Shown here: piece after piece, positions 143 to 51,369 of the stretch | How the letters are laid out: every line of letters begins with the position of its first letter | Numbering within the stretch: the stretch's first letter is position 1 | DNA from: Alphaproteobacteria bacterium | Lineage (GTDB): Bacteria; Pseudomonadota; Alphaproteobacteria; UBA828 | Assembly: GCA_965214705.1 (NCBI GenBank) | Contig: OZ243972.1 | Span: 1,600,001-1,664,000 of the forward strand | Reading direction: 5' to 3' | DNA length: 64,000 bases | Program-made: the position numbers and the translations under genes | The notes under the pieces: model-generated | The model's database searches: none | Seen by the model: only the letters and a program-made list of their open reading frames with translations | Told to the model about the DNA's origin: nothing

Positions 143-985
143 ACGGATGCGGCCACCGGCGAGCACGGCGACCTGCTCGACCTCATCCGCATCGCCACCG
201 GCGCGGGCTCGCTCCTCGCCGCCCTCGCCGAGGCGCGCGCCTTCCTCTCGCTCCCGCCCGCGACCGCCACCGATGGCGGCTCCGACTCCTACGACCGCAC
301 GGAAGCGGCGCGCCGCCTGTGGCAGCGCTGCCGCGCCATCGACGGCACCCATGCCGAGGCCTATCTGCGCGCCAGAGCGATCCACCGCTGCCGCTTCCCG
401 GCGCTTCGCTACCACCCCGCGCTCTTCTACCGCGACGGCGGCGGCATACGCCGCCTGCCGGCGCTGGTCGCCGCCGTCACCGGCGCCGCGGGGGAACACC
501 CCGGTCACGGGTCCGTTACCGGCGTCCACCGCACCTGGCTCGATCCCTCGCGCCCGGCCAAGGCGCCCGTGGCGCGCCCGCGCAAGGCGCTCGGCCGCGT
601 CCACGGGCTGGCCGTGCGCTTCGGCAGCCCGGCGCCGACCACGCTGCTGGTGGGCGAGGGGATCGAGACGGTGCTGTCGCTGGTCACGGCGATGCCGGAC
701 ACCGTGGCCGCCGCCGCGCTTTCCGCCGGCAGCCTCGGCGCGTTCGCGCCTCCGCCCGGCACAGCCCGGCTCGTCATCGCCCGCGACAACGACCCCGAAG
801 GCGAGCGGGCGGCGGAACGCCTCGCCCGCCGCTGCGCGCAGGCGGGCGTCCCCGTCCATGTCCTCGTTCCCGAGGGCGAGGACTTCAACGACGACCTGCT
901 CGCGCTCGGCTCCGCTGCGCTCGCTGCGCGCGTCGCGCCCCTCTTCCGCTTCGCGGGAGAGAGAGGGGAGCGGGAGTCGGTGTGA
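143..985 (+). pseudogene. Toprim-domain primase-like protein of plasmids/ICEs, 5' part displaced
   Basis: TDAATGEHGDLLDLI, GVHRTWL, LLVGEGIET, ARDND and DFNDDL motifs. The first ~44 codons of ORF 11..985 look unrelated (foreign DNA). Confidence 0.75.
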
Positions 986-1041
986 ACAAGGCGGGGGAGG
1001 AGAGAGAGAACCCGCCCGCCAGGCACGAAGGGAGCACCCGG

Positions 1042-1281
1042 ATGGGACGCTATCGCACCGACCTCACCTTCCGGCGCATCACGCCGGAGGAATCCCGCAT
1101 CTACCAGGACGGCACCATCGTAGGCGAGGTCTACCGGCAGGAAGACATCCTGAATGCGGGCGCGCACTACTACGTCATCCATCTTTCCGAAGACCATCGC
1201 GGCCCCTTCAAGGTGCACGACCGCTCGCGCATCCGCGCCGAGGCGCAGCGTCTCGTCGACACACATCCGTTGTGGCCGTGA
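1042..1281 (+). CDS. Small hypothetical protein (79 aa)
   Basis: ATG at 1042 after GGAG; protein-like composition (MGRYRTDLTFRRITPEESRIYQDG...). Confidence 0.6.
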   Translation: MGRYRTDLTFRRITPEESRIYQDGTIVGEVYRQEDILNAGAHYYVIHLSEDHRGPFKVHDRSRIRAEAQRLVDTHPLWP

Positions 1282-2913: not shown

Positions 2914-3079
2914 TGGCGACGCTTCCACCTCAACACCGGAGCCGGTCGCTGCCTCAGCGGCGATCGGCTCCCCCCTTTTCGCCGTGCCCACCACCGCGCT
3001 TCGCAGCTCGGCGCATGCGCGCCTGCGCCGCTCTCGCTCACGCCGTTCACCCGTGGCGACCCGTCGTGCGCCGCCGGCT

Positions 3080-5758: not shown

Positions 5759-5837
5759 AGTCGAGAGTGCGCGCATCATTTTTCGCACGCCTTGCGCATT
5801 CGCTGCCAGAAAGCAGGCGAGGCAGGGAGCGCCGGAC

Positions 5838-6855: not shown

Positions 6856-6867
6856 AAGCGCCTCTCC

Positions 6868-8309: not shown

Positions 8310-11249
8310 TTAGAGCTCGAGCTCCAGTTCGGGCCCCTCCCGGACCTTCTCCCGCCCCGGCTTCCTGCCCGATTGCTCGGCCGTCGGCCCCGCCGGCGCC
8401 GGTTCCGGCATCTTCGGTTCCGACTTGCTTCGGCCGCCTTCGCGTGCGGGTGCCCGTCCCAATCCTTCTTCGACCGGCCTGTCGTGCTCGCTCTCGAGTG
8501 CTTCCAGCGCCGAAATGCGTTCGCCGGTCACCGCCTCCAGGCGCTCGCGCAGCGCGTTTCGATCGTCCGTGACCAACTCGGCGCTGTAGCGTGCTCGACT
8601 GATCTCCACATAGAGCGTCTTCTGTGTCGTCAGGTGGGGATGATTGGCCTCCATCGCGGCGATCACACGATCCACCGTACGACCCTGGAACGCATGCACG
8701 GTGGATGCCCATGCTCTGTCGATATGCCGCAGCTGCGGATCGTCCGCACGCAAGTTCAGCTCCCGTCCGCTTTCGAGCCTGAACGCGACCTTGCCGCCTT
8801 TCACATCGGTCACCTCTGCCGTGCCGCTGTTGACGAGCCGATGGTTCGCATCGTTTCGTGTCCAGCACACGCGGTCTCCCCGACGCAGCTCCAACGTGTC
8901 CGCGGCATAGACCTCGACCCCGCCCGTTCTTGCCGCCAAGCGTTCCGGCTCCCAGGACACCTTGTCGCCGTCTCTCGACTTCAGTTCGACCACGCCCGCC
9001 TTATGCTTGACGCCCGCCACGCGAAGCTCGTCGCCTTTCTCGACACCGAGACGTTTGTAGGATCGATGAAAGGCCACCACGTCGCCGACCGCGTAGTTGG
9101 CCGCCAGACACTTTTCGGCATTGGTGTAACCGCGAGAGACCAGGCGCTCCGCGTTCATTGCCGGTCCGACGATGGCACCGTCCCGTATCAATCTCTCCCG
9201 CACGATCTCGTTTATCCTCTCACGCAAGGCTTGGCTCGGAGCCATCAGACCCGCGTTGTCGCGCTCTTCGGCCGACAGCGCGAGCCATCGCGCCGCCGCC
9301 GCACCGGCGAGATTGTCCGGCTGAACCTCGGCCACATTCGAACCCAGCTTTTCGAACGCCTTGCGGACATCCCCCGCGAGGCTCGCTTCGACTGCTTCCT
9401 TCAGGGCCGGGTCGCGCTGACGCACGATCTCGTCCATGACCGCGGTTTTCATGCCCGCACCCTGCAACTGCGCGAACGGCTTGCCGGCATCGACGGCATC
9501 GAGCTGCTTCTCGTCGCCCACGAGGACCACCCGCGGCAATCGCAGCGTGTTGGCGATCTTCAGCAGACTTCGGGTCTGCGCTGTCGAAGCCAGAGAACCC
9601 TCGTCTACCACGAACACGGTCTTCGCGAACCTGGCCCGCATGTCGCGCTCGCCCCTGTCCGTCAATCTTCCCTCGGCGACACCGGCATAGCGTGCCAGGA
9701 ACCGCTGCAGGGTCTCGCTCTCGATCCCGGCTTCGCCGGCAAGCGTTTGCGCGGCAGACGCGGACGGTGCCAGGCCCTTGACCTCTAACCCCCGCTTTTC
9801 GAGAAGCTCCCGCGTTCGCTTCAGCATGGTGGTCTTGCCGGTGCCGGCATAGCCCTGGACCCCCACCACGCGATCCTTCTCCGACACGATGAGCTTCACG
9901 GCCTCCTTCTGTCCGACCGTGAGCGGACCGTTTCGCAGTGCCTTCCCCACAGCACGTCCGCGCATCGGAGCGGGAGCTCGTCCCTGGCCGCGTTCCATGA
10001 GCGCGATGGTCTCACGCTCGTCCGCCACCGCCTTGTCGGTCGTGAACGACTCTCCAGGTACCGGGAGAGCCGCCGCGTGCAGCGTTCCCGCCCTCTCCAG
10101 CCGGGCGACGCCAGCCTCCGCCTCGCCGATGGTCACGACGCCCGGCCGCCAGGCGAGAGAGGCGGCAAGCAGCGACGTTCGGGAGAACACTGCCTCGCGC
10201 TCCGACAGGTGCGCCACTGCCCATGCGACGGCGGCGTCGGCATCGCGCTGCGCCGCCGACTTCGAGCCTTCCAGCTCATCGGACCGAGCGACGTTCTCAC
10301 GCTCCGTCTTCCGTTGCGCCGTGCGCCGCGCAGCCTCGTCTGCGAGCCTGTCAACCTCCAGACCGAGATCGGCCGCCTGCCTCTGCCAGCTTGTCCGCAG
10401 CTCCTCCTTGTCCACATCTCGCTTGTGCGCGCGGGTCATCAGGGAGGCGCGCTGCGCCAGTCGCTGGTTCTCTGCCGGTCCCCCAAGACCCTGCGCCGCC
10501 ATCGCCGCTTCGATTTCCGCCCTGCGTGTCGAGAACGCCTCGATCGTCATGCGCGCCACGCCCGCGATCTCGAAGCGTCCGTCCGCATGCGTCTTCTCGG
10601 TCGCGTAACCCAGCGTATCCAGCTCTCTCGCCAGCTCCGCGCGATACAGAGCGCCGATCAGCATCTTGGATGCATACAGCTTCTCGTTGGCCATGGTGCG
10701 CCACTTGCCGTCCTCGCCCTGCACCATGTTGGCGATCACGGCATGCGTATGGAGCTGGGGATCAAGATTGCGAGAGGTGTCATGGCGGAAGGTGGCGATC
10801 AGCGCCTTCTGGTCCCTGGCCCGGGTCATGCGGCCCGTCTCCGCATCCCTCAACCTGGTCTCGACGACGTTCTCCTCGATCCAGGCGAGCGTCCTCCGCA
10901 CCGCCTCGTCATGGGCGGCGACGATACGGGAATCGCCACCGATCAGGGCTGCGATGGAAACCGACTTCGGGGCGGAGAAGGTGACGTCCCGCCCGGGTCT
11001 GTGACTGAACGTGCCGTCCTTTTCGCGCCGGCCCAGCCTGCGTCCCGATCCGTCGGGAACCGTGCCTTCCAGCACGCCCTGGAACGTGTCCGGATCCACC
11101 GCGCCCGACAGTCCCAGAGCCTCGGCTCCTTTGCCCGCCCAGGCACTGGCGTCCCGATGCTCGGGATCGTCCTTCGCGTAGTACCCGTCCTTCTCGTAGT
11201 AGGTGACTCCCTGGGCGGGCGAAGCCACTGCGCCGATCGAGGCGACCAT
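8310..11249 (-). CDS. trwC: MOBF relaxase-helicase (TrwC/TraI family)
   Basis: N-terminal YYEKDGYY, DVTFSAPKSVS, HDTSRNLDPQLHTH (HUH), FSTRRAEI; helicase motifs GYAGTGKT, DEGS and HAFQGRT. Confidence 0.95.
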   Translation of the reverse strand: MVASIGAVASPAQGVTYYEKDGYYAKDDPEHRDASAWAGKGAEALGLSGAVDPDTFQGVLEGTVPDGSGRRLGRREKDGTFSHRPGRDVTFSAPKSVSIAALIGGDSRIVAAHDEAVRRTLAWIEENVVETRLRDAETGRMTRARDQKALIATFRHDTSRNLDPQLHTHAVIANMVQGEDGKWRTMANEKLYASKMLIGALYRAELARELDTLGYATEKTHADGRFEIAGVARMTIEAFSTRRAEIEAAMAAQGLGGPAENQRLAQRASLMTRAHKRDVDKEELRTSWQRQAADLGLEVDRLADEAARRTAQRKTERENVARSDELEGSKSAAQRDADAAVAWAVAHLSEREAVFSRTSLLAASLAWRPGVVTIGEAEAGVARLERAGTLHAAALPVPGESFTTDKAVADERETIALMERGQGRAPAPMRGRAVGKALRNGPLTVGQKEAVKLIVSEKDRVVGVQGYAGTGKTTMLKRTRELLEKRGLEVKGLAPSASAAQTLAGEAGIESETLQRFLARYAGVAEGRLTDRGERDMRARFAKTVFVVDEGSLASTAQTRSLLKIANTLRLPRVVLVGDEKQLDAVDAGKPFAQLQGAGMKTAVMDEIVRQRDPALKEAVEASLAGDVRKAFEKLGSNVAEVQPDNLAGAAAARWLALSAEERDNAGLMAPSQALRERINEIVRERLIRDGAIVGPAMNAERLVSRGYTNAEKCLAANYAVGDVVAFHRSYKRLGVEKGDELRVAGVKHKAGVVELKSRDGDKVSWEPERLAARTGGVEVYAADTLELRRGDRVCWTRNDANHRLVNSGTAEVTDVKGGKVAFRLESGRELNLRADDPQLRHIDRAWASTVHAFQGRTVDRVIAAMEANHPHLTTQKTLYVEISRARYSAELVTDDRNALRERLEAVTGERISALEALESEHDRPVEEGLGRAPAREGGRSKSEPKMPEPAPAGPTAEQSGRKPGREKVREGPELELEL

Positions 11250-11250
11250 C

Positions 11251-15875: not shown

Positions 15876-17011
15876 GTTCCTCCCACTCGTCCGGCAGGTC
15901 GGCAGCGAGCCCGGCAGCCTCGCGCACCGCCCTGTCGATGCGCTCGCCGTGGGTCCTGGCGCGCGCCGCCGCCCTTGCCGAGGCGGGGTCGGCGCCGTCA
16001 TCGTCGCCGAGCCAGGCGGCGCGTGCGTTTCCCAGTAGCGCGTGCAATGCCATGGCACGCCGGTCCGCGTCCGGGACACCATCGAGGGCTTCGATCTCCT
16101 CGGAAACGGCGAGCGCGTGCTGCGCGAGGGAGAGGAAGCGGCGGGAGCGCCCGCCCCAGCGGCAGGTGTTGGCCAGCACATGGGCGACGGCCTCGAAGTC
16201 GACGCTGCCGGCCTCGATGTTCTCCGCATCGTCCGGCCAGGAGGGCGGGGGTCCTGATTGCGCGGCCGTCCGCCTGCGGCGGCGTTTGGCTCCGGTGTCC
16301 TGTTCCGTCATCTGCGTTGCCCCTTCAATTCGTATCTCCCTCCTGTTGGAGCAGCGGCGGGCCGTTCGTGTCGGCCCGCCGCTGCATTCCCGGAGGCGCG
16401 GCCGCCCGCCTGTGGCGGCCCTGTCCATTGTTCGGCCGCATGCCTGGAGTTGCGCTCCCTGCGGCGGCGCTTGACCGGCGTTTCGCCTTCTGTGATCTTT
16501 TCGTCAGTACCCATTTGCGCTCTCCTTTTCGTTTCGCGGCGCCGGCGACCGGCTGCAGGGATCGGCCCCCGGCGTTCCGCGTATGGGCCGCTCTTCGTCC
16601 GTCTCTCTTCTGCGTCGAAGAAGGCCTGGGCACCGAAGTTGCGGGTGCCTCCCTGCCGCGCTGCCTCAGACGGCGCTTGACGGGGCATGCGCCTTTCGGT
16701 CACCCTGCCGGTCCTCGTGAAGCATGTTGAGTTGTGCTCTTACGTGCCGGGGGGTGCCCGAGGCCTCTGGTCCAGGGGTGGTCCCCGGCATCGCGAGGGA
16801 AGGCGGTCGTCCGGATTCGGCAGTGCCTGACCGGCTTCCCCTGTTCCCTGAAAGCGTTCCGCTACCGTTTGCGATTTCCTTTCAGTTCAGAGCCTCTTCA
16901 TGGTTTGTGCGCCGGGGGCCGCCCGAGTGAGGCGGCCCCCGGCAGCGCCTTCGCATGGGTGCCTGCAATCGCGGGCGGCCGGTTTCGGACCTCGTGCGTC
17001 GTTGCACTGCC

Positions 17012-19228: not shown

Positions 19229-19231
19229 GGC

Positions 19232-20407: not shown

Positions 20408-20433
20408 CGGCGACCTCCGACGATATGCCTGAA

Positions 20434-29866: not shown

Positions 29867-30211
29867 TCAGCCAAAGTCGACGAAGCGCCGCGCCCGTCTT
29901 GCATGCAGTGCCGGCCGCCGCCCGGCCGACCGTGCGCGCACCGCCCTGAGCGCCGCACGCAGCCGGTAGCCCCGGGCCTCCGCCACCCTGAGCGCCCCCA
30001 GGGCCAGTACCACGGCGGCCGTGGTCCACCACGTGGGCACAAACAGCCAGAACACCAGCAGTATCAGCAGCCGCGCATCGAACAGGTAGAAGCGCACCGG
30101 CCGCATGCTGTCCCGCCACAGGGGAACACCCTGGTGCAGGGGAACGCCCTGGTGCAGGGGAACGCCCTGGCGCAACGGGCCTTCCTGGCAGGGTGTTTCT
30201 TGCGCCCTCAT
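29867..30211 (-). CDS. icmT: IcmT/TraK family protein with N-terminal QGVPLH repeats
   Basis: WRDSMRPVRFYLFDAR and RGYRLRAALRAVR motifs. Confidence 0.88.
   Translation of the reverse strand: MRAQETPCQEGPLRQGVPLHQGVPLHQGVPLWRDSMRPVRFYLFDARLLILLVFWLFVPTWWTTAAVVLALGALRVAEARGYRLRAALRAVRARSAGRRPALHARRARRFVDFG
30119..30172. repeat. Three tandem copies of the 18-bp hairpin unit CAGGGGAAC(A/G)CCCTGG(T/C)G
   Basis: Units start at 30119, 30137 and 30155. Confidence 0.95.
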
Positions 30212-30474
30212 GATCGGTTCCTGTCCTCACCGCCGGTTCTCCGTCGTCGTGCCGGGATCGATTGCACCGCCGGTCTGCGGCGGCGTGGCCGCCGCAGCGG
30301 CTTCACCCGGCGCCGGTCCGCCTCCTCGATTCGACCTTCGCGGAAGGCGCGCTCCGCCGCCGTCGCCAGATCGTTCCCGCTTCGCTGCAGCGCCTGTGTC
30401 ATCAGCCCCGGCCAGCGTTCCTGCGGCTCCTCCATGAGCGCCTCCTTGAGCGCGCCGTCGAAGACGAGCCACTC

Positions 30475-34365: not shown

Positions 34366-34910
34366 CACGAGCCTTCCCTCTGCGGCTCCGACCAATCGAG
34401 GCGTACCGCGCGGCGCGAGGCGTCCACGACGAGAGTCGCTGCACTGCCGGCCTGCATTCCGGCGTCCCGCAGGACTTCCACGAGAGGGGCGTTGCGTGCC
34501 GCGACCGTCACCATCACCGGGCGTACCGGAGGCGGGCCCGCCGCCACGAAGCGGTAGCCGGCATGTCCTGCCAGGGTCTCCGCCAGGGCCTCCACCGGAC
34601 CGATCCAGTCAATGGTCACCGGGCGCCGCAGCGCCTGCGGCACAGGCGAACGCTCCGGTACGTCGAGAGGGAGGCCGGCAGGAGGTGGTGGAGTTTCCGC
34701 CGACTGGATCCGCGCCAGCATCGTCAGCGCCGCCTCGGCCCGCTCCGCAGCTTCCGCCAGCCGCAGCTCGGCAGGGTCCGGCCGACCCTCAACGCTCTCC
34801 TGGGGTCCCTCGCTGTTCCTGCCGGGCTCAATGCCCAGGGCGGCGCAGCCGCCCGCAAGCGACGCCATCAGGCCGACCGCAACGAGGGACACGATGCGCC
34901 GCCCGCTCAT
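34365..34910 (-). CDS. dotD: DotD/TraH lipoprotein
   Basis: Lipobox (AGGC), IDWIGPVE, AGYRF and LRDAGMQAG. Confidence 0.92.
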   Translation of the reverse strand: MSGRRIVSLVAVGLMASLAGGCAALGIEPGRNSEGPQESVEGRPDPAELRLAEAAERAEAALTMLARIQSAETPPPPAGLPLDVPERSPVPQALRRPVTIDWIGPVEALAETLAGHAGYRFVAAGPPPVRPVMVTVAARNAPLVEVLRDAGMQAGSAATLVVDASRRAVRLDWSEPQREGS

Positions 34911-34940
34911 CGCACCGCGCCCCTCATCGGAGGGCTCCCC

Positions 34941-37814: not shown

Positions 37815-39043
37815 CCGCCGCAACTCCCGACACTGAGCGAGCCGATGGTCGCATCGGGGCCGTGGAGCCCGGTGGACTCGATCCGCTGCGCGCGCGCTTC
37901 CCCCTTCACGTCGACCATCTCGCCCGCCAGCGAGCGCGCGGAGGAGGCGCCGGTGATCACGGCCGTGCTCGCTACAGCCAACGTCTGCGCGGTCAGGGCA
38001 CCAGCAGCGGTCATCGCGGTCCCTTCGAGACGGCCGCTCACCAATGCTGTTTCCGTCGTGACAGGTCCCGCCGCCGCGCGCCCGACCACCAGTTCCATCG
38101 ATACGGAGAGGGAGGCCGCCGCCAGAGCGCCGGCTTCGAGCGATTCCGCTTCGAGGCGCGCCGCGCGCGCATCGCCCGTCACGGTCCCACCGCCCCCTGC
38201 CGTTCCGTCTTCCGACAGCGATGCCGTGAAGCCTTCCGCCGCAGCCACGCCCGTCACGTCGTTGCCGCCGGCATCCAGGACCGTCTCCATCCGGTTGAGG
38301 CCGGGACGGCCGGGCTGGGCACGGCGGTAGAGGGCCTGGTCGCGGTAGCGCAGCCCCGCATCGGCGGTCACGTAGAGCGCGGGCGCTGCCAGCGGCCGTC
38401 CCAGCCCCCTCTCAATGCCGGGAACGTGGGCCGCCATCACGGTGGCGGCGCTGCCCGCCTCCGCCAGCGCGGCAAGCCCGGCAGATATGGCGCCCTGCCT
38501 GAGCGCTGCTCCCGCCTCCGGGCCCGCAGGCTCCAGCACGCCGAAGGCCATCGCCACGGGGGAACGCCCCGGAATAGCGGTGCCGTCATCCATGATGCCG
38601 ACAGTGAAGGAGACGTCTCTGCCGACATTCTCCGGCAAGCCCGGAGGCACCGCGCCGAGGCCCCGCAGCGCCCCAGGGGTCAGCACGAACGACGGCTCGA
38701 CCGTGAGACGCGCCCCGAATTCTTGCTCCTGGCTCGCCCGGTGCGCCGCGAGCACCCAGGCGGCAAACACGCGGCCGGCCTGGAAGGCCATCGCCGTCTG
38801 CCGGGCCGCGTGCTGCGCCGCATAGTGGGCCGCAAGCCCGGTGCCGGCGATCGCCGCCAGCAGCAGCACCGCCAGGAGGGCCCCAGCGCCAAGCCGGTAC
38901 CGGCGCCTCGGCCACACCGGGAAACTCCCCGGCGCAGGGGAACGCCCCGGTACGCCGGGCGCGCAGATGCCGAGCCTGCCCACGCCGTGTGCATTCATGC
39001 CGAGCACGATCGTCCGAAGCGGCCTCATCCGAAGCGGACTCAT
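37808..39043 (-). CDS. PilV-like minor pilin, paralogue 1
   Basis: Hydrophobic N-helix; LYRRAQPGRPGLNRMETVLDAGGN; beta-repeat shaft ending LSVGSCGGC. The start is uncertain. Confidence 0.75.
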   Translation of the reverse strand: MSPLRMRPLRTIVLGMNAHGVGRLGICAPGVPGRSPAPGSFPVWPRRRYRLGAGALLAVLLLAAIAGTGLAAHYAAQHAARQTAMAFQAGRVFAAWVLAAHRASQEQEFGARLTVEPSFVLTPGALRGLGAVPPGLPENVGRDVSFTVGIMDDGTAIPGRSPVAMAFGVLEPAGPEAGAALRQGAISAGLAALAEAGSAATVMAAHVPGIERGLGRPLAAPALYVTADAGLRYRDQALYRRAQPGRPGLNRMETVLDAGGNDVTGVAAAEGFTASLSEDGTAGGGGTVTGDARAARLEAESLEAGALAAASLSVSMELVVGRAAAGPVTTETALVSGRLEGTAMTAAGALTAQTLAVASTAVITGASSARSLAGEMVDVKGEARAQRIESTGLHGPDATIGSLSVGSCGGC

Positions 39044-40250: not shown

Positions 40251-42346
40251 CCCATCTTTGCCACTTTTCGGTCCCGAAGGCCTGATTTTGGGTAGCCTTT
40301 GGGATCTAAGGCACTGATTTTGTTGGATTGTGTTTTGGGAAGTCCATTGTAGTGCCATAATCTTTGGTCTGTGGGCCGGCGCTCCTTGACAGTCCGCAAA
40401 CTGTCCGTGACCCTGCCGCCATGTTCATTCGCAAAACCCTCACCGGTCGCGGAGACGGTGGCGAGCGCTATGCCACCTACCGCCTCGTGCGCAGCGAACG
40501 CATCGGCGGAAGGGTGCGCCAGGTCACGCTCCTCAATCTCGGCGCCGACTTCGGTGTGCCCGAGGAGCAATGGCGCGAATTGGCGCTTCTGATCGAAACC
40601 CTTCTCGCCGGCAGCGAGCCGCTGCTGGAGCCGGATGCCGCCTTGCGCCCCGTCGCCGAGGACGTCGTACGGCGGCTTCACGCCCGCGATCTCGGCGCGT
40701 CGCGGCCCGGGGACGAGAGCGACCTGGCCACGGTCCGTCTCGATAGCCTCTCCCACGAACAGGTCCGCTCGGTGGGCTGCGAGCGCCTGGCTCTCGCCGC
40801 GCTTGACGACCTTCGCTTCATCGAGACGCTGGAGAGGCTGGGCGCAAGTGAGCGCGACGCACGCATCGCGGCGGCACTGGTGGTCGCGCGCATGATCCAT
40901 CCCTCCAGCGAGCGCGAGGCCTTCCGCTGGCTGAGCGCGAACAGCGCGACCCTGGAGTTGCTCGATGTCGACAGCGGCAAGTCGCTCACGCTCAGCAAGC
41001 TCTACCGCATCGGCGACCTCTTGTGGCGTCACCGCGCGGCGCTTGAAGAGGCGCTGTGCGCCCGGGAGCGCGATCTCTTCGGCATCCCCGACACCATCGT
41101 CTTCTTCGACCTGACCAACACCCATATGACCGGACGGCCCAGCTCCGCGCTGGCCCGCTTCGGGCGCTCGAAGCAGAGGCGTGACGATTGTCCGATCGTG
41201 ACCCTGGCCCTGTCGCTGAACCAGGCCGGCTTTCCGCAGCACAGCGAGATCCTGCCCGGCAACATCTCCGAGCCGGCCACTCTCGCCGACGCCATCGGGC
41301 GGCTGGAATGCCAAGCGCGCGGCAGCAACGCCCCCAGGCCCACGGTCATCATGGACGCCGGCATCTCCACCGAGGCCAACCTCGCCTGGCTGCGGGCGGG
41401 CGGCTATCACTGGATCACCGTTCGCCGCGGCGTCTCGGCGCCGCCCGGGCGCGAAGCCGATGCCGCCTTCGAAACCCGGGCCGGCCACGATGCCCGCGCC
41501 TGGCGTCTCGCGGCAGGGGACGACGAAGCGCACCTGTGCGTCTGGAGCCATGAGCGCCAGCAGAAGGACGAGGCCGTGCTCGCCCGTCAGCGTCACAACT
41601 TCGAGGACGCCCTGCGCGCCCTGCATGGCGGGCTGTCGAAGAAGAACCACATCAAGCAGTTCACCAAGGTGATGGAGAAGCTGGGCCGGCTGAAGGAAAG
41701 GTACAGGCGCGTCCACCGTCAGTACGACATCGAGGTCGAGCCCGGAGAGAAGGGGCGGGCCAGTGCGGTCCGCTGGAGGCGCAACGCTCTCCATGCCGAG
41801 CGCGACCGCCAAGCGGGCATCTATGTGCTGCGCACCAGCCACGTCGAGTGGGATCTTGAAACCGTGGTCCGAACCTACTGGAAGCTCACAGAGCTCGAGG
41901 CCACCTTCCGCAGCCTGAAATCCGAAATCGGCCTGCGCCCGGTCTGGCACTCCAAGACCTCGCGCATCGCCGCCCACCTGTTCATCGCCGTCCTCGCCTA
42001 CCACGCGGTTCATCTGCTGCGAACCCGTCTGGCGGCGCACGGCTTGCATGACCGCTGGAGTACGATCCGCGACAAGCTCGCGGGCTGGGTGCGTCTCACC
42101 TCCACCATCCGGGAGGTGGACGGAAACCGCATCGTCATCCGCCAGGATGCTCAACCCGACGCCGAGGCGCGCGTCATCGCGCAGGCGGCGGGCCTCACGG
42201 TGGATCCCCACAGGCGCCGGGCGGTGCTCCCGGGAGTGTCGCGATGAGCGCACAAACGTAGTGCCATAATCCCAGATGGGCCAGAAAATCAGCCCATCAT
42301 CGCAACTACTTAGGTCGCAGGCGCGCGCCAAAATGGCAAAGATGGG
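40251..42346 (+). mobile_element. IS1634-family element (copy B, diverged from A)
   Basis: 13-bp TIRs CCCATCTTTGCCA / TGGCAAAGATGGG; 4-bp TSD CGAA at 40247-40250 and 42347-42350. Confidence 0.92.
40421..42247 (+). CDS. IS1634-family DDE transposase
   Basis: MFIRKT, FDLTN, FGRSKQRRDD, IMDAG and LEATFRSLKSEIGLRPVWH. Confidence 0.92.
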   Translation: MFIRKTLTGRGDGGERYATYRLVRSERIGGRVRQVTLLNLGADFGVPEEQWRELALLIETLLAGSEPLLEPDAALRPVAEDVVRRLHARDLGASRPGDESDLATVRLDSLSHEQVRSVGCERLALAALDDLRFIETLERLGASERDARIAAALVVARMIHPSSEREAFRWLSANSATLELLDVDSGKSLTLSKLYRIGDLLWRHRAALEEALCARERDLFGIPDTIVFFDLTNTHMTGRPSSALARFGRSKQRRDDCPIVTLALSLNQAGFPQHSEILPGNISEPATLADAIGRLECQARGSNAPRPTVIMDAGISTEANLAWLRAGGYHWITVRRGVSAPPGREADAAFETRAGHDARAWRLAAGDDEAHLCVWSHERQQKDEAVLARQRHNFEDALRALHGGLSKKNHIKQFTKVMEKLGRLKERYRRVHRQYDIEVEPGEKGRASAVRWRRNALHAERDRQAGIYVLRTSHVEWDLETVVRTYWKLTELEATFRSLKSEIGLRPVWHSKTSRIAAHLFIAVLAYHAVHLLRTRLAAHGLHDRWSTIRDKLAGWVRLTSTIREVDGNRIVIRQDAQPDAEARVIAQAAGLTVDPHRRRAVLPGVSR

Positions 42347-42868: not shown

Positions 42869-44575
42869 TCATGCCAAAGCCTCGCGGTCGTCCCGGATCG
42901 TTGCCGGATCGATCGAAGACGCCTGGTCGACCCGTGCCCCCTTGCGCAGCGCATCGAAAGGGTCGGCCTTGCCCGCCGCCACCAGCGCCCAGATGCGCTC
43001 GCCGATGGGCCTGCCGCCCATGTTGTCGAGCCAATGCTCCCAGGCCCCTGCCGGGTCGCGCTGGCGCACGAACGAGAGATACGCTGCGTCCGGGCGGATG
43101 GCCTCGGCGATCGCCGTCTGGCGCGCATAGCCGTTCCAGGCCTTGCCTGCGACGGCGGAACGCGGGAATCCCCCGGCCCGCCCCGGCACCGCGCTCGGCT
43201 CATCGCGCTTGCAGGCCTCGCAACCCTCCGGGTTGCGAAAGCGCACCAGGGGCCAGTCGCCGAGATGCCGCGCCAGCCACGCCGGCACAGGGGAACGCCC
43301 TGACACAGGCGAATCACCTGCTGCCGTGCCTCCGCCCGCCGGCCTTTCGAGCGCGCATGCCTCGCACAGCCTGGACAGCAGGGTCTGCTTCATCAGCAGC
43401 TCGATGTTGCCGGGCTTGCACACCTCGGCCGTGCCCACCCCCATGTCTAACAACCGAAAGAGGATGGCGTTGGCGGAGTGGACGTGGATCGTGGTCCACA
43501 CCTGGTGGCCGGTGTCGATGAACTGCAGCACCTGGCGGGCCGCATCGGCGTCCCTGATCTCCGAGACCATGCCCGAGGCGGGATGCACCCGGCAGAAGTG
43601 CATCAGCGCGTCCCTGAAGTGTTTGCCGCGCTCCTCGCCGGAGCCCGTGGTCGGCACTGCGATCTGCACCGCGCCAGGAATGGGGTACTCCACCGGATCC
43701 TCGATGGTGACCACGTTGAGCTGGCCTTGCGCTTCCTCCATCTGCAGCGCGAGGTTGGTGGCCAGCGTGGTGGACTTGCCGTCCCCCGCCGTGCCGCCCA
43801 GGAAGATGCCGCCTCTCAGCGACATGCGGATCTCGGAGAAGACCGCCGCCTCCTCCGCAGAGAATCCGAGGCTCTCCAGGGTCGTGCCTTTCTCAATGCG
43901 GTCGCGGTAGAAGAGGCGGGCGAAGAGGTGGTCCCCGTCGGGCTCGTGCGGGCCGCGCTGGCAGCGCAGCGCCGAGACCGTTGCGGGCAGCGGCACCTGG
44001 CCGCCGGCACGGACGGAGAACCCCTGGAAGGCGCTTCGCTGGTACGAGGTCTGGGCCGATCCCTCGTCCTTGCAGTGGAACAGGAACCCCATGGCCTCGC
44101 GGCCCTCGTCGGCCGGCAGGGGATCCGCCAGCTGGAGCTTTCGGTCGTTGACGATGGCGTGGACCCGGCAGAAGCCGCCATCGTTCTCGAACACGACGTC
44201 GCTGGCCCTGGCCGCCGCCGCCTCCTCGAACAGCATGCGCACCTTGCGCGCCGCCGGCGCCTCGCCGCTTTCCTCGAGATCGGCTGTCCGCCAGCATTCC
44301 GCGATCTCCTCGAGGCTGGCCGTCCGTTCGATCAGCCGCCCCGGCGCGCTACCGTGCCAGGAAGTTCCCTTGTCGCGGCGCAGCGCCAGAAGGGCCGCCC
44401 GCAATCGGCGATCGCTCTCGTAGCCTTCCGCGATCAGGCAGCGCCCGTCGGCATGGACCGCGCAGACGCGGCGCACCCACTCGTCCATGGCCGGATGGCG
44501 GATCAGAGCGCCGCTCCCCTCCGCGAGTGGAGGGCGGGAGCCCAGCTTCAGCCACGATGCCGCGGAACGATTCAC
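42869..44575 (-). CDS. pilQ: Type IV pilus assembly ATPase (PilQ/GspE family)
   Basis: ASDV, GTAGDGKST, TIEDPVEY, SEIRD, TGHQVWTTIH and CEAC...CEAC Zn motifs. Confidence 0.92.
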   Translation of the reverse strand: MNRSAASWLKLGSRPPLAEGSGALIRHPAMDEWVRRVCAVHADGRCLIAEGYESDRRLRAALLALRRDKGTSWHGSAPGRLIERTASLEEIAECWRTADLEESGEAPAARKVRMLFEEAAAARASDVVFENDGGFCRVHAIVNDRKLQLADPLPADEGREAMGFLFHCKDEGSAQTSYQRSAFQGFSVRAGGQVPLPATVSALRCQRGPHEPDGDHLFARLFYRDRIEKGTTLESLGFSAEEAAVFSEIRMSLRGGIFLGGTAGDGKSTTLATNLALQMEEAQGQLNVVTIEDPVEYPIPGAVQIAVPTTGSGEERGKHFRDALMHFCRVHPASGMVSEIRDADAARQVLQFIDTGHQVWTTIHVHSANAILFRLLDMGVGTAEVCKPGNIELLMKQTLLSRLCEACALERPAGGGTAAGDSPVSGRSPVPAWLARHLGDWPLVRFRNPEGCEACKRDEPSAVPGRAGGFPRSAVAGKAWNGYARQTAIAEAIRPDAAYLSFVRQRDPAGAWEHWLDNMGGRPIGERIWALVAAGKADPFDALRKGARVDQASSIDPATIRDDREALA

Positions 44576-45609
44576 CGTTCCTCTCCCGCACGGATTGCGT
44601 CGGCAGGCCGCACGCGGTACGGCAGCGACGCTTCCCCGGCGCCTCCAGCCAGCACGTCCCTTTGGGCGGCGACACCCCCTTGGGTGGTCACACCCCTTCG
44701 GGTGGTTACACCCCTTCGGGTGGTTACACCGGGGGGTCTCGCCGTGATCTCCTCGATGAGCACCGCGCCGGGGAGGCGGTCTCCCTCCCGCACGAACCAG
44801 ATGAGCTCACCGTCGCTGACGCCGGCCTGCAGCGCGCCTGCCATGCCGATGATCGAGAACCACGAATAGTCCGGAGGCGTCGCCGCGGGCGCCGGCTCGT
44901 GCTTCGGCGACGCCGCCTGCGATGAAGCACCGCTACCCTCTTCGGGCATAGGCATCCGCCTGACCACGCGGACGGGCGCGGACTCCTTAACTATAGGGAG
45001 ACTGGCGACGCCTGCCGCCGCGCCCCGGATCCCGGCAGCGTCGCCGCGCCATTCGCCGAGCAGCGCCCTGAGCTCGCCCTCCAGCGTCACGATGCCGGTG
45101 ACGATTTCCTGGCGCTCGCGGCAGAGCGCCAGAGTCTCGCGCTCGATCGCCAGCGCCGAGACGGCGTCGTCGGTCTCCACCGCGCCCGTGAGCAGCTTAT
45201 TCAGCAACTCTCGGGGGCAGCCATGCAAGACAGGGGAACGCCCTGCTGCAGGGGAATGCTCAGGAACGCCGCTAACCGCTCCACCGGCCGCGCCCGCACT
45301 GCGTTCCGAAGACCGGGCCACCGTCGTCGACGGCCGGACCGAAGCCGGCTGACCGCCACGCCCACTCAGGCTCCGTAGCAGGCGGCTGAGCGGCCGTGCT
45401 TCCGCTCCTGCATTCATCCCGACACCCGAACGCACCTCTGCCGGACCTTCCTCCCCGCCGGCGCCCTCGGGCACCCCCGCAACCGTGTCGGCGATCTCCA
45501 TCACCGCATCGGGCAGGGGAGCAGGTTCGCCGGCAGCGGGGGAATCGCCCGCCAGCGCCGCGACCAGAATGACCGCGAGGGAAGCCGGACTGCGAACCGG
45601 GGTCTTCAT
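44572..45609 (-). CDS. pilP: PilP-like type IVb pilus protein
   Basis: Signal peptide, coiled coil, C-terminal SIIG...VREGDRLPGAVLIEEI..GV; directly upstream of pilQ. Confidence 0.65.
   Translation of the reverse strand: MKTPVRSPASLAVILVAALAGDSPAAGEPAPLPDAVMEIADTVAGVPEGAGGEEGPAEVRSGVGMNAGAEARPLSRLLRSLSGRGGQPASVRPSTTVARSSERSAGAAGGAVSGVPEHSPAAGRSPVLHGCPRELLNKLLTGAVETDDAVSALAIERETLALCRERQEIVTGIVTLEGELRALLGEWRGDAAGIRGAAAGVASLPIVKESAPVRVVRRMPMPEEGSGASSQAASPKHEPAPAATPPDYSWFSIIGMAGALQAGVSDGELIWFVREGDRLPGAVLIEEITARPPGVTTRRGVTTRRGVTTQGGVAAQRDVLAGGAGEASLPYRVRPADAIRAGEER
44654..44730. repeat. 18-bp tandem hairpin repeat ACACCCCTTCGGGTGGTT (about 4 copies)
   Basis: Units at 44654 (degenerate), 44672, 44690 and 44708; encodes GVTTRR repeats. 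Confidence 0.92.
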
Positions 45610-45616
45610 TGCCCGC

Positions 45617-46858
45617 TCACTCCGCCTCCCTCCCGGTGCCGGGAACGTCAGCATTCATGCCGACGAACCCGGCCAGGGCCCGCCAGGGATACGCGCTGGT
45701 CTCGGGGATGCCGTCGAGTGCAACGTGAAGGTGGCCGCGCGACCACCACCAGCGGCCGCCCACGTCTCCGTCCACGGCGGCCGCCGACAGCGCGCCGCCT
45801 CCGCGGAAACGCACCGCGAACTCGCCGTGCCCGCCGAAGGGAAGAAGAACCGTGTCCTGCGCAGCGACGAGCCGGTCCGTCAGCAGAAAAGCCGCATGCC
45901 GCTCGCCCGTCGGGCGCAGCGGGAAGGGATCGCCTACCCGGTAGTCCTGCCGGCGCGGCAGACGCTCCCACTGCACGGAGATGCCGGCTCCGTCCGCCGC
46001 GGGCATCAGCGCCGCGGTGTCCGCCACCGCGCCGTCCGCATCCAACCGCCAGAGCTCGTCCCGCTCTGGCCCGAGCGCCAGCACCAGGCGCACCCCCGCC
46101 GGACTCTCAAGCACGAATCCGTCGTTGGCCATGAGGAAATGCGCGAGCTCGTCCCCCGTCACTGTCGGCGCGCCCGCCGCCAGCGCCAGTCCCGTGGAGC
46201 CCGGCGCCCGTAGCTCGGGACCCTGGACAGGAAAACTCCCTTGTCCAGGGGAAGGACGCGGCGCGGCGCGGAGCGCCGCCTCCGGGTCCTGCGCGACGGC
46301 CTCCTCCATGACCGTCGCGGTTTGCTTCTCGTTGACCGCAAGCCCCGCCGGAAGCTCGAGATCCGGACAAGCCTCCTTCAGCGCGCGCGGCCAGCTCTCC
46401 TGTACCCAGCCGAGCGAAAGAACGACCCAGTTACCCGCTGCGACACTTTCGCTGTGCAGCCGCCCGGTGCCGGGGTCGTAGAAGATGGGCACATGGCCCT
46501 TCTCGTTGCCCGGATCGGGCTCGCTGCCGGCCTTCTGGTAGTTGTAGAGGGCCCGGAAGCGGGGAGAGGGGACCACCCTCCAGCGACCCTCTCCGGTCTG
46601 CCAGGTATCGTCGAAATGAAAGCACGCGCGCGCGCTTCCGTCCGCCGCGTGATGAACGCCCCAGACCAAGCCCCGGTCCCCGGCCCGCGACGAGTTCGGT
46701 CGCTCGTAGAGCCAGACCCGGTCCGACAGCAGCCCGGCGAAGAACGTTGCGTCGTGGGAGCTGTAGTTGGCGGGCCCGGCCACAGTCGTGCCGCCGCCTG
46801 CGGCGGCCGCCACTACGATTGCGGCGAGGGCGCCCTCGATGATCCTTCGGATCCTCAT
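45617..46858 (-). CDS. Hypothetical secreted, Trp-rich protein (413 aa)
   Basis: ATGA overlap with the upstream gene; signal peptide MRIRRIIEGALAAIVVAAAAG. Confidence 0.75.
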   Translation of the reverse strand: MRIRRIIEGALAAIVVAAAAGGGTTVAGPANYSSHDATFFAGLLSDRVWLYERPNSSRAGDRGLVWGVHHAADGSARACFHFDDTWQTGEGRWRVVPSPRFRALYNYQKAGSEPDPGNEKGHVPIFYDPGTGRLHSESVAAGNWVVLSLGWVQESWPRALKEACPDLELPAGLAVNEKQTATVMEEAVAQDPEAALRAAPRPSPGQGSFPVQGPELRAPGSTGLALAAGAPTVTGDELAHFLMANDGFVLESPAGVRLVLALGPERDELWRLDADGAVADTAALMPAADGAGISVQWERLPRRQDYRVGDPFPLRPTGERHAAFLLTDRLVAAQDTVLLPFGGHGEFAVRFRGGGALSAAAVDGDVGGRWWWSRGHLHVALDGIPETSAYPWRALAGFVGMNADVPGTGREAE

Positions 46859-48486: not shown

Positions 48487-49756
48487 GATCCGAACTCCCT
48501 GTCTCCGAATGTGTGGCTGGCTGCGCCGCTGACGTAGTCGCTGGCCCTGCCAGTTCCTCGAAGCGCTCGCGCGGCATCGCCACCGGCGACACCCGGCGCC
48601 CTTCCAGCCGCCACTCGCCGGCGGCGCCCTGCCAAAGCCGCACCAGCTCCAGCCCCGGCACGGCGGCCACGGCGTCGGCAAGCCACGCCGGCGGGCGCAG
48701 CGTCGCGATGATCACCTCGATCCCGTCCGCACTCTGCGACGGGTATTCCAGGCGGCCGCCGTGCGTCCCGAAGTTGCGGTCCACCGCCTCGCGGAACTCC
48801 AGCAACGATGGAGGGGCGGCGTCGGAAAGCCACAGCACGGGCTCGAGCGGCGCCACCGCCCAGGCCCGCGTCCCGGTGACCGAGGCCGCGTACCATGCCG
48901 ACAGATGCGCCTCGGCGATGCGCCGGTGCGGCGGCGCCAGGCGTCCCGTCTCGAGCCGCCAGCGCACCACCAGCACGGCGCGGCCCTCCAATTCCGGGCG
49001 GGCAGCGGCAAGCGCAGGGTCGTCGAAGCGCCCCTCGCAGGAGACCCGCTCCGTGCGCCATGCCGGCAGGTACGGCGGACGGTCTTCCAGCGCCCGCCGG
49101 CAGCCCGCGATCAGTGCGCCCGGGTCCAGCGCCGCCGACACCGGCGGCTCCACCGGAACTTCGGTCTCCGCCACAGGCTCGGGGCCCGTGACCAGACGCC
49201 ACAGGCTCTCGCGGTACGACCACACAAGGGCCACGACCGCGACGCCCCCAGCCACGGCAAGCACCCGCGCGACGTTGGGCAGCTTCAGCCCGGCCAGAGG
49301 CGCGGCCACAAGCCGCATCGCGGGGTCGTCGGCGAGGGCCAACGGATCGATCTCGGAGACCCCTCCTTCGATCAGGCCCGGCGTCGCGTACAGCTCCCAG
49401 CCCACGTCACGGGACCGTTCGAACGCTTCCAGCGCCGAGGCCCGGTCGGGGAACACCTCGTCGCCGTCCGCCAGGAAGGCGCCGTCGCGCGCCTTCACCA
49501 GGGCCAGGCGCCCGTCGTCCGCCTCGACCAGCGCCATCCAGAACGGCGCGCCGATATGCACCTGCAACGACGCCGCGAGGCTCGGGCAGCCTTGCGGGTC
49601 CTCTTCGTCCGCCGCGTAGCCGGTCTGCTCGCCCCGGTGCACGTGCCACGGCCGGCCGAAGGATCGCGCGTTCCGCGCCACCGTGGCCGCGCCGCCCCGC
49701 TCCAGCCAGTAGAGCCCGGCCGCGAAGCGCCGCCCGCTCACGGTCACCACGCTCAC
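48479..49756 (-). CDS. pilO: Type IVb pilus protein PilO
   Basis: GRRFAAGLYW, SLAASL and DGAFLADGD plus a central TM; GTGA overlap with pilN. Confidence 0.82.
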   Translation of the reverse strand: MSVVTVSGRRFAAGLYWLERGGAATVARNARSFGRPWHVHRGEQTGYAADEEDPQGCPSLAASLQVHIGAPFWMALVEADDGRLALVKARDGAFLADGDEVFPDRASALEAFERSRDVGWELYATPGLIEGGVSEIDPLALADDPAMRLVAAPLAGLKLPNVARVLAVAGGVAVVALVWSYRESLWRLVTGPEPVAETEVPVEPPVSAALDPGALIAGCRRALEDRPPYLPAWRTERVSCEGRFDDPALAAARPELEGRAVLVVRWRLETGRLAPPHRRIAEAHLSAWYAASVTGTRAWAVAPLEPVLWLSDAAPPSLLEFREAVDRNFGTHGGRLEYPSQSADGIEVIIATLRPPAWLADAVAAVPGLELVRLWQGAAGEWRLEGRRVSPVAMPRERFEELAGPATTSAAQPATHSETGSSDHG

Positions 49757-51369
49757 AGGGGAACTCCCTGGTGCAGGGGAACTCCCCGATGCAGATCGAC
49801 CCCGTGCAATTCGGCGATGCCGAGCGGCGCCCCGATCTCGGCGGCGATCAGCAGCACGCGCTCCTCGCGCACCAGCCGCGCGCTGCGGCCGCCGAAGGGC
49901 GCGGGAACGTCGGCATCGACGCTCCCCTCCCGGCTCGATACCGCGCCCCGATCGCTGAACCCGGTCACCACCAGGGTCTCGCCGCGCCCGATCCTGCGCG
50001 TCACCTGCACCGCGCGGCCGCCATATGCCGGTAGCTGGATGGTGTGTCCTGAAGAGGTGAAGGTGGTGAAGCGCGGCCGGTCCCTGAGACTCGCACTGAG
50101 GAGCACCAGGACCTCGTCCGGACCCGTGATGCGCGCGAGATAGCTCAGCGCGAACCCCGACGACACGGTGCCGGGCACCAGCTCGGTCTGCGCCAGGCCC
50201 TCGCCCGCCGTGGTCCGGACCTCCTTCAGGTAGGCCTGGTTGATAAGCTCCAGGAACTGTGCCGGCTTGCCGTTGAGACTCGGGATGTCGGCGCTCAGCA
50301 CTCTCGATACAGTTCCCGCCCGGCTCAGCGCCCGCACCGTCGCCGCCAGCGTGTCTCCGGCGCCCCCGGCGTCCTCCGCGCCCCACGGCCTGACCAGCGA
50401 CACCGTGTCCCCCGCCACGGCGACGCCGACGGAAGAGCCGAGGAGCTCGGACACGGAAAGATCCAACCCGTGATCGGTTTCGCGCTCGAAGCGCACCGCG
50501 TAGAGGTGCACCGAAAGCGTCACCGGGCGCAGCACCTCGCGGTTGAGCCAGCCGAGGAAGCCCCGCACCCTGTGCACGTCCTCGGGCCGGCCGCTCACCG
50601 TCACCGAGGCGCTGGAAGGGGAGACCGTGATCCTGGTCTCTTCTCCCACCAGCCCCGCGAGCTGCGCCTCGATTTCCGGCCAGGGGTCGTACTCGGTCTC
50701 GCTCTCGATCGACTGTTCGCTGAGGCTGCTCGATCCCTCCTCGCCGGCCTGGTCCTGGGTCGACGATGCAGTGCCGTGGCGCTCTGTGCCGGCCAGCGCG
50801 TTGACCCGGAACACCGCCGTGAGCGAACGCACAATCTCGATGCGGCCCTCCGCCTCGGCGTCGTACCGGGGAACTCCCCTGTAGCGCCATTCGTGGCCCG
50901 CGGCCTGCGCCCAGGCGTCCAGCAGACGATCCAGCGGGCCGGTCCAGACGGCGCCCGTCGGCGATAGTCCGTCCGGGACCCGGAACACCGCACCATCCCG
51001 CGCAGGTGCTGTGCCGATGAAGCGCACGGCAAGTCCCGTCGCCGCCTCGATTCGCGCAGCCAGCACCGCCTCGTCCTCTGCCCCGGCGAGCGGCAGGGTC
51101 ACCGCGTCGCCCGTCAGGAAGCGTTCGGGCAGCGCGCCCCGCCGGTCCTCCTCCACGAGCGCCAGCCCCACATAGGGCAGGTCCACCCGGCGCACCGTTA
51201 CGTAGCCGGAACCGGATACGCTCTCCCGTTGCGCCGCTGCCTCCCGCGCCACACGGTGCGCCTCGTCGCGCGCGTCCTCGACCGCCGTGAGTCCGCAGCC
51301 GGACAGCGTCACCAGCGCGGAAAGCGCGACCGCCGGCAGCTGCAGGCCAAGCGCCGGGTTCCGGGTCAC
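49753..51369 (-). CDS. pilN: Type IVb lipo-secretin PilN
   Basis: Lipobox LSGC, WTGPLDRLLD, LNGKPA, TELVPGTVSSGF, IQLP and GETLVVTGF. Confidence 0.9.
   Translation of the reverse strand: MTRNPALGLQLPAVALSALVTLSGCGLTAVEDARDEAHRVAREAAAQRESVSGSGYVTVRRVDLPYVGLALVEEDRRGALPERFLTGDAVTLPLAGAEDEAVLAARIEAATGLAVRFIGTAPARDGAVFRVPDGLSPTGAVWTGPLDRLLDAWAQAAGHEWRYRGVPRYDAEAEGRIEIVRSLTAVFRVNALAGTERHGTASSTQDQAGEEGSSSLSEQSIESETEYDPWPEIEAQLAGLVGEETRITVSPSSASVTVSGRPEDVHRVRGFLGWLNREVLRPVTLSVHLYAVRFERETDHGLDLSVSELLGSSVGVAVAGDTVSLVRPWGAEDAGGAGDTLAATVRALSRAGTVSRVLSADIPSLNGKPAQFLELINQAYLKEVRTTAGEGLAQTELVPGTVSSGFALSYLARITGPDEVLVLLSASLRDRPRFTTFTSSGHTIQLPAYGGRAVQVTRRIGRGETLVVTGFSDRGAVSSREGSVDADVPAPFGGRSARLVREERVLLIAAEIGAPLGIAELHGVDLHRGVPLHQGVPL

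Follow-up and report, generated by a model that had tools for sequence, protein, structure and literature searches.

The stretch analyzed here (the window) comprises 64,000 nucleotides of the alphaproteobacterial contig OZ243972.1 and corresponds to G000:C1:1600001-1664000, with G000 denoting the source genome (7.92 Mb, 67% G+C, three contigs). From ~8.3 to 52 kb, it carries an IncI-like type IVB (Dot/Icm-type) conjugation system whose genes lie almost all on the minus strand. We identified a TrwC relaxase, the coupling protein, DotA/TraY, TraO/DotG, TraQ, DotH/IcmK, DotI/IcmL, DotD, and SSB, as well as thin-pilus genes for two PilV-like proteins, a PilS-like pilin, a T2SSE ATPase, and a PilN-family secretin. 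Within and beside these genes lie copies of an 18-bp hairpin unit, the family of which we name F1 (F2 is a second 18-bp hairpin family). On balance, we favor the view that this micro-repeat behaves as insertional DNA riding on one conjugative element family and that it would be moved as a folded single strand.

The motif C(A/C/G)GGGGAAC(G/T/A)CCC(T/C)G, on which the original prediction from the letters of the window was built, has 10 exact matches in the window, all on the + strand (starting at 489, 30119, 30137, 30155, 38557, 38935, 43288, 45231, 49756, and 49774), whereas 0.01 are expected from shuffles and none of 100 shuffled windows reached 10. Hence, the motif exists well above background frequency. 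The copies at 38917 and 50866 have a single mismatch. Using an 18-position weight matrix derived from copies in the source genome, we found 14 + strand copies scoring at least 17, and a copy at 34643 (score 19.4) had been missing from the predicted list. The sole minus-strand match, at 50864, is an echo overlapping the nearly palindromic copy at 50866. The positions given for some second tandem units held up less well, since 43306, 45249, and 46246 score 1.6, 9.6, and 1.6, respectively, and are too decayed for the matrix. Nonetheless, the second units at 43306 and 46246 are real because the gap in sister elements is 36 bp, not 18; the partner at 45249 is supported by its continued 18-bp register alone, as the sister-gap evidence covers the other two. 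The weaker copies proposed near 43163 and 45537 have matrix scores of 5.1 and 1.0 and are not supported.

The tandem copies have a period of 18 bp, as predicted, and a single F1 unit (18 bp, consensus CAGGGGAAC-N-CCCYGGTR) folds as single-stranded DNA into a hairpin with a 5-bp stem and a 5-nt loop at -4.3 kcal/mol. Copies scoring at least 12 are absent from the three insertion sequence (IS) elements of the window and from the DNA to the right of 50883, which agrees with the earlier remark that the IS elements and the right-hand cargo are free of the motif. Rfam gave 0 matches in the window at the gathering threshold. As for the gene names proposed earlier, the toprim gene, the PilN-family secretin, and the T2SSE-type ATPase called pilQ are correct, but no family match supports the names icmT and pilP. 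The features are collected in the table.

Features of the window and related loci, with the state of the corresponding place in other elements, genomes, or public contigs. Coordinates are those of the window unless a contig is given.
Feature	Position	Strand	Context	Corresponding place elsewhere
Single F1 unit CGGGGGAACACCCCGGTC	489..506	+	Linker of DUF7146-Toprim gene (101-985, +); sense; read GEHPG	Two units in the G017 orthologue
Three-unit F1 array	30119..30172	+	5' end of small minus-strand open reading frame (ORF) 29867-30230; read (R/H)QGVPL x3	Whole stretch missing in the C1a paralogue; one unit and one degenerate unit in C3a
Degenerate F1 unit CAGGCGAACGCTCCGGTA	34643..34660	+	DotD-like gene 34365-34910 (-)	54 bp in G020; 3 bp in G005a and G005c
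F1 unit	38557..38574	+	Within second PilV-like gene 37808-39028 (-); read IPGRSPV	18 bp in 5 sister elements, 36 bp in 2; therefore a shared and old insertion
Two F1 units	38917..38952	+	Near 5' end of second PilV-like gene 37808-39028	Exactly empty in G005b (36-bp difference)
Two F1 units, second decayed	43288..43323	+	36-bp/12-aa insertion in T2SSE-type pilus ATPase gene 42869-44575 (-)	Public contigs of runs X1, X4, and X5 span the site with zero differences
F1 unit and decayed partner	45231..45266	+	At or just upstream of the start of minus-strand pil gene 44572-45207 (longer ORF to 45654)	No sister element anchored here in flank mapping
Decayed F1 unit and partner	46228..46263	+	36-bp/12-aa insertion in pil gene 45617-46858 (-)	36-bp difference versus 6 sister elements; protein alignment likewise shows an insertion
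Two F1 units	49756..49791	+	Last 12 residues of PilN-family secretin 49753-51369 (-); run into the start of the gene that follows	36 bp in 5 sister elements, 54 bp in C3a, 18 bp in C1d; public contigs often break at this array
Single F1 unit CCGGGGAACTCCCCTGTA	50866..50883	+	6-aa insertion YRGVPR in PilN-family gene	Missing in C1a, G020, and G005c (18-bp difference); found in G005b
F2 array, ~four units, CACCCCTTCGGGTGG + 3 nt	44655..44726	+	18-bp tandem	
TrwC-type (HUH) relaxase-helicase gene	8310..11249	-	PF08751, E = 9.9e-87	
Conserved inverted repeat GCCGGGGG ... CCCCGGCATCG	16730..16800	+	Intergenic, upstream of relaxase operon; candidate origin of transfer (oriT)	Found in 6 elements
DUF7146-Toprim paralogues	C1:1382015-1383028, C1:4052224-4053267, C1:4103484-4104509, C2:462162-462752, C2:687405-688037; window 101-985		G000	

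The evidence that the units are insertions comes from a comparison of 11 elements (G000 supplied four, and five other genomes the remaining seven), which carry 2-41 units each and 239 units in total, in 127 arrays. We mapped the array flanks onto the other elements (472 comparisons) and found that 108 of the 127 arrays map to a sister element and that the length differences are multiples of 18 bp in 382 of the 472 comparisons; among well-anchored comparisons, 195 of 206 are multiples of 18 bp, of which 63 are zero. An exactly empty sister site was found for 46 arrays, 31 of which are single units. Single units close to the consensus are thus found at empty places, each as an insertion of exactly 18 bp. 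Corroborating this, the motif residues appear as clean 6- or 12-aa gaps in protein alignments of three syntenic G000 paralogues, at differing places in each paralogue, so the refutation test set by the original prediction, whether homologue alignments show clean insertions in multiples of six residues, came out in its favor. In the pilus ATPase gene, the 36 bp of the window are missing at 11 homologous loci, and a distant ATPase locus (L011, in G012) has a single 18-bp unit at the identical place.

These length differences bring up the possibility that F1 is an ordinary minisatellite, that is, a set of slippage-prone tandems spread between co-resident sister elements by homologous recombination with no dedicated insertion step. 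Whole-unit changes in copy number at a fixed locus, which are typical of minisatellites, are indeed what we found, as orthologous arrays differ by +/-18, 36, 54 ... bp (+/-18n bp); sister elements share genomes (four in G000 and three in G005), and in 75 of 75 pairs the two filled orthologous sites agree in orientation, which common descent would lead one to expect. However, slippage cannot make a first unit, and the 31 single units at sites that are exactly empty elsewhere have unrelated flanks and lie in many genes. Slippage also does not account for the distant element with a unit at the ATPase site that 11 closer relatives have empty. Moreover, a local origin unshared between loci is not seen, since the same 18-mer is present in 127 arrays in many genes, and the target preference described below along with a near-identical 18-mer at more than 100 non-homologous places need a copying source. 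We consider the minisatellite explanation improbable, and it ranks a little below that of a cis-acting site, which is taken up below. We also considered that arrays might grow with a polarity and rejected this, in that the first unit scores above the last in 27 and below it in 21 of 50 arrays.

For the 34 empty-site events, we found that the insert is preceded by A in 23 (background ~17%) and followed by C in 28 (background ~33%), and that flanking positions farther from the insert hold little information. There is no target-site duplication in the 34 events because the last base of the unit, which is independent of the flank, shows no association with the flanking base. Since the unit starts with C and mostly ends with A, adjoining units form an A|C site where they meet, and such junctions may help arrays grow.

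The lack of target-site duplication bears on whether F1 is a transposase-driven MITE (miniature inverted-repeat transposable element) or the excision footprint of a resident insertion sequence. In its favor, the IS at 13674-15875 ends with CAGGGC ... GCCCTG, resembling the outer stem of the unit, and G000 is rich in IS elements. Yet 18 bp is too short for two transposase-binding ends, a footprint leaves the conserved GAAC loop unexplained, and IS91-type transposases are present in 3 of 21 and Y1 transposases in 0 of 21 genomes of the genus, as opposed to the unit in 15 of 21. Together with the missing duplication, on which a footprint or MITE was rejected, these results make this origin very unlikely.

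Of the 127 arrays, 97 are genic, 26 are intergenic, 2 lie over gene boundaries, and 2 are of mixed orientation, in elements with a non-coding share of ~15% by the gene caller used. None of the 97 genic arrays disrupts its ORF, the unit of 18 bp being six codons. The genic arrays are found in antisense phases 0/1/2 in 28/19/1 cases and in sense phases 0/1/2 in 11/14/24 cases, and the five common frames yield unrelated Gly/Pro/Ser-rich peptides (GERPG, GGTPR, PGRSP, QGVPL, and QGNAL); the readings QGVPL(H), YRGVPR, xGRSPx, and GEHPG were given correctly by the original prediction. The sixth frame, which reads TRAFPC, is almost never used, which indicates selection after insertion. The frame usage fits frame-blind insertion, then selection.

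Given that units occur both sense and antisense and in five of six frames, conservation at the DNA level rather than the peptide level, as first proposed, is supported by these sequences. The converse would be that F1 is a selected peptide module, a hexapeptide repeat added to proteins for its own function. The inserts are Gly/Pro-rich, like linkers, and are often found at termini or linkers, but one and the same DNA yields unrelated peptides, being read in five frames and from either strand, and 26 of the 127 arrays are intergenic. The five-frame, two-strand reading contradicts a peptide module, to which we assign almost no likelihood.

Young units are closer to the consensus than old ones. 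Seven arrays occur in one element only; each is a single unit, and their mean score is 25.8. Arrays common to at least three elements have a mean score of 21.7 (20 arrays, 44 units). In addition, decayed relics in register are found on both sides of arrays, in 14-26 of 124 arrays, compared to 0.1% for random 18-mers. By these scores, units arrive as consensus copies and then decay, which argues for selfish or neutral DNA rather than a conserved site. A tiny selfish palindromic element, like the Rickettsia palindromic elements (RPEs) or the REP (repetitive extragenic palindromic) sequences but much shorter, had been the first of two explanations in the original prediction, and it fits the filled and empty sites, the target preference, and the decay with age.

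The second had been an oriented signal spread along the transferred strand, as all copies seemed to have one orientation. We found that this is true of the window (14+ : 1-) but not of the element family, in which the units are 139+ : 100- over the 11 co-aligned elements and the empty-site events are 19+ : 15-. Hence, the one-sidedness of the window is not a family rule, and an oriented transferred-strand signal is rejected as a property of the family. In a wider form of this idea, F1 is a selected cis-acting site, either one that an element protein binds or one that acts in hairpin form as a signal on the transferred strand (for priming, protection, partition, or silencing), and insertion is merely how new sites arise. 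The location of all 14 window units on one strand, the exclusive tie of the repeat to one conjugative element family, the hairpin kept by covariation, and a CCNGG in every unit (read from the consensus) would agree with such a site. However, orientation is mixed in the sister elements (139:100), an element may have from 2 to 41 units at positions that are mostly unconserved, and old units decay from the consensus, with relic units flanking arrays far above the background. A selected site is therefore unlikely in our estimate.

The hairpin itself has been kept by paired changes. Mutual information over 153 position pairs has its maximum at stem pair 2-14, for which we counted 113 A-T, 50 G-C, 54 A-C, and 6 G-T, and stem pair 3-13 has 7 compensated A-T beside 220 G-C. 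Since A-C on one strand is a G.T wobble on its complement, the complement can always fold. The excess of A-C over G-T is present in both orientations relative to genes (33:4 and 21:2); therefore, it belongs to the unit itself rather than to the mRNA or to one fixed strand of the element, and an mRNA-strand cause of the asymmetry is rejected. Young unique insertions include the A-C variant, so this variant is still able to insert. The covariation and the wobble pattern are thus as would be expected for a folded single strand.

We found 61 copies in G000 at a matrix score of at least 19, compared to 0 in the sequence read backwards, and 46 of the 61 are inside four paralogous syntenic elements, which together amount to 1.98% of the genome. 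Most of the copies beyond the four elements are in other conjugation genes. Six DUF7146-Toprim paralogues carry 1-5 F1 units, all at the same inter-domain linker, which is thus a copy-number hot spot. Further copies lie in a relaxase, in a 418-aa protein with no assigned family and its near-identical paralogue in a second gene cluster, and in a large ATPase-like protein and its neighbor, in a cluster recognized as F-type transfer by eye only. Two of the 61 copies encode a GVPL motif in a pair of tyrosine-integrase paralogues and are probably protein-driven chance matches, and two more, in MurF-like and MscS-like genes, resemble chance.

Among 20 further genomes of the genus, 14 carry the F1 unit (15 of 21 including G000); among 20 genomes that share the family, order, or class but belong to other genera, none does. 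Using a stringent tandem-unit pattern, we found 36 stretches from 14 assemblies among 185,579 species genomes, 37 stretches in a metagenome collection, and 0 matches in phage contigs. All 14 carrier assemblies are metagenome-assembled genomes (MAGs), which are labeled Alphaproteobacteria or Rhodospirillales, plus one labeled Gammaproteobacteria. Backbone genes of the element family (blastx, E <= 1e-10) are encoded by 36 of 36 species-genome stretches and 35 of 37 metagenome stretches (71 of 73). Hence, the F1 repeat is a specific passenger of one IncI-like type IVB/thin-pilus conjugative element family and is almost confined to it. The MAG labeled gammaproteobacterial (L067) has five F1 units beside two backbone-like genes, which is either a transfer of the element or an issue of labeling or binning. 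A plasmid database gave no DNA match, and its protein matches to the ATPase are at 31% identity or less. In a literature search whose scope left aside supplementary files, we came across no account of an 18-bp hairpin repeat that lies in frame and is linked with a conjugative element.

F2 repeats this architecture with another sequence. Its units have the form CACCCCT[T/G/C]CGGGTGG + 3 nt, with an 18-bp period and a 5-bp stem closed by C-A ... T-G and followed by G; a further array is at G000:C3:352472-352525 (-). F2 is dispersed in 8 of the 11 compared elements (there is none in C1a, C1d, and G004), and 8 of 10 matches in G000 are inside these elements. In 47 of 54 comparisons, places with F2 differ in length by a multiple of 18, and some F2 arrays end directly upstream of a start codon. 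Of 41 recurrent 12-mers in a census, 25 belong to F1, 5 to F2, and 11 to G+C-rich low complexity. Two sequence families of one architecture speak for the recognition of a structure rather than of one sequence.

Other micro-repeats were seen along the way. Hairpin tandem repeats with periods of 17, 15, and 12/24 bp are found at gene borders of the window (34900-34956, 39013-39048, and 37649-37730, respectively); they look local, not dispersed, with 1 and 7 genome matches for two cores. At G000:C3:238721-244315, short repeats of the GDTRAGD type adjoin F1-like units in two proteins of another conjugation cluster and may be a further micro-repeat. A sister element has four F1-like cores (CCGGAGAACTCCCTGGTN) at G000:C1:1291370-1291486, in seemingly non-coding DNA and with 33-bp rather than 18-bp spacing.

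As to how F1 insertions arise, the unit would move in folded, single-stranded form at a time when the element, in the course of conjugative processing, is itself single-stranded. A hairpin-specific nicking-joining enzyme of the HUH type would cut at the unit borders and at A|C targets and rejoin the strands, and arrays would grow or shrink by slippage or by re-insertion at A|C unit junctions. Such nick-and-join on single-stranded DNA would be the most likely chemistry, which we put forward tentatively.

The element's own TrwC relaxase would be the most likely catalyst. We found a TrwC homologue in 8 of 8 unit-rich elements (15-41 units each) and none in the examined span of two unit-poor elements (9 and 2 units), and the only HUH enzyme common to carriers is the TrwC relaxase. 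No reverse transcriptase or nuclease of a novel type is evident among the backbone genes. RAYT (REP-associated tyrosine transposase) or IS200 was rejected as the mobilizer because the Y1 transposase (PF01797) is absent from all 21 genus genomes, while a control search was positive in 6 of 14 reference genomes. The original prediction had suggested looking for a RAYT or a reverse transcriptase nearby, and neither was found, as a Pfam scan of 52 window ORFs also gave no reverse-transcriptase family match. IS91 was rejected as well, since IS91-type enzymes are in 3 of 21 genus genomes compared to the unit in 15 of 21. G000 itself has 116 IS91-type Y2 transposase matches, which with its 36 TrwC matches constitute an unusually heavy conjugative/rolling-circle load.

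The candidate oriT offers a weak lead toward the relaxase, as its right arm plus two bases is similar to the 3' half of F1 units, with about 8 bases in common (CCCCGGCA). As best candidate enzyme, the relaxase is a doubtful choice all the same. In the boldest version, the 18-nt F1 and F2 hairpins would be the smallest mobile DNA described, excised and re-inserted as single strands by the relaxase or another element-encoded nicking-joining enzyme during transfer, a proposal we regard as speculative. If true, conjugation is the driver of an in-frame 'peel and paste' by which the element's own proteins are remodeled, and the units are a new class of relaxase-dependent micro-transposon.

Several results weigh against F1 as a moving single strand and against the relaxase as its mover. 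Most relaxase neighborhoods in G000 have 0-2 units; given 36 TrwC relaxase domain matches (~30 full length) in mostly unit-poor surroundings, such a relaxase is not sufficient. The relaxase idea rests on exclusion and co-occurrence, which make it a candidate link, and the likeness to the candidate oriT amounts to ~8 bases, which are common in a 67% G+C genome. Insertions have no strand bias (19+ : 15-), although single-strand transposition of the IS200/IS605 type usually shows one. Public contigs of four runs, which say nothing about activity, have no 18-bp polymorphism at the window arrays. The contrast in score between young and old arrays rests on 7 unique arrays, the A|C target is low in information, and array counts are not independent events because the sister elements are related.

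The system in the window is interrupted by three IS elements (13674-15875, 30475-32628, and 40251-42346), and one of these divides a gene that a sister element carries as a single 349-aa ORF. At 21795-24787, a long ORF, which has 1033 aa in sister elements, is broken in two. Because of these three IS elements and the split ORF, the window copy of the conjugative element is probably defective.

If the reading of F1 as insertional DNA holds, the lower size limit of insertion-capable repeats falls to 18 bp, and F1 is a natural case of selfish DNA that survives in genes as exactly six stop-free codons. Secretins, pilins, ATPases, relaxases, and primase-like proteins of the conjugation system have gained linker-like hexapeptides from the unit. 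The tie to one element family makes the mover of tiny repeats that lack a transposase testable, as the candidate enzymes are all on one 45-kb element, and an enzyme that inserts 18 nt scarlessly under the direction of a hairpin would have practical interest. F1 units are also sensitive lineage markers for these elements.

Among known systems, IS200/IS605 elements, considered here with their miniature derivatives, require TnpA (Y1), have two differing subterminal hairpins and a length of hundreds of bp, and insert with strong strand bias. F1 shares with their 'peel and paste' transposition the absence of target duplication, a short specific sequence beside the insertion, and dependence on a hairpin, which makes it a possible working model; TnpA and the strand bias (19+ : 15- and 139:100 here) are not shared. 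MITEs of DDE transposases have terminal inverted repeats and a target-site duplication, and the 34 events show no duplication. REP/REPIN-RAYT systems are similar in having short G+C-rich hairpins, which an HUH enzyme presumably mobilizes in single-stranded form; they go with a RAYT gene. According to an excerpt of PMC3733652, REPs are extragenic sequences of 20-40 bp with a GTAG or CGTC tag. In contrast, 97 of the 127 present arrays are genic, and the RAYT gene (Y1, PF01797) is in 0 of 21 genus genomes. The consensus CAGGGGAACNCCCTGGTA and the junction GGTA|CAGG are also without the GTAG or CGTC tag as given in that excerpt (PMC3733652).

PARCELs are described in PMC2996958 as tandem intragenic repeats with dyad symmetry that are linked to mobile elements. 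They are 25-residue domains conserved as an amphipathic peptide, whereas the present repeat is conserved in DNA only. HIP1 is a short palindrome abundant in cyanobacterial coding DNA that is statistically linked with type IV secretion genes, as stated in an extract of PMC13756078. It is an 8-bp genome-wide motif that is tied to methylases and arises by substitution, unlike an inserted 18-bp unit.

RPEs are palindromic repeats of ~150 bp that encode a conserved peptide, are inserted in frame into unrelated genes, and are tolerated in the products (PMC10969869). F1 shares the in-frame insertion into unrelated ORFs but not the ~100-150 bp with one conserved peptide, having instead 18 bp, five frames, tandem arrays, and one conjugative element family. 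In its consequence, in-frame palindromic insertion, the repeat is most like the RPEs. Cyanobacterial small dispersed repeats (SDRs) are reportedly hairpins of ~21-27 nt that are dispersed and sometimes tandem and that were judged mobile by Elhai et al. in 2008 (Genome Res 18:1484) from comparisons of filled and empty sites. SDRs of cyanobacteria are cited in the excerpts of PMC3116915 and PMC2884548. They differ in being genome-wide in cyanobacteria, whereas the present units are shorter, belong to an alphaproteobacterial lineage, and are restricted to a conjugative element. In size and behavior, the repeat is most like these SDRs. F1, which ranks among the smallest insertion-capable repeats so far, stands out by being so small, by spanning exactly six codons, by having a sister family, and by being tied exclusively to one conjugative element family.

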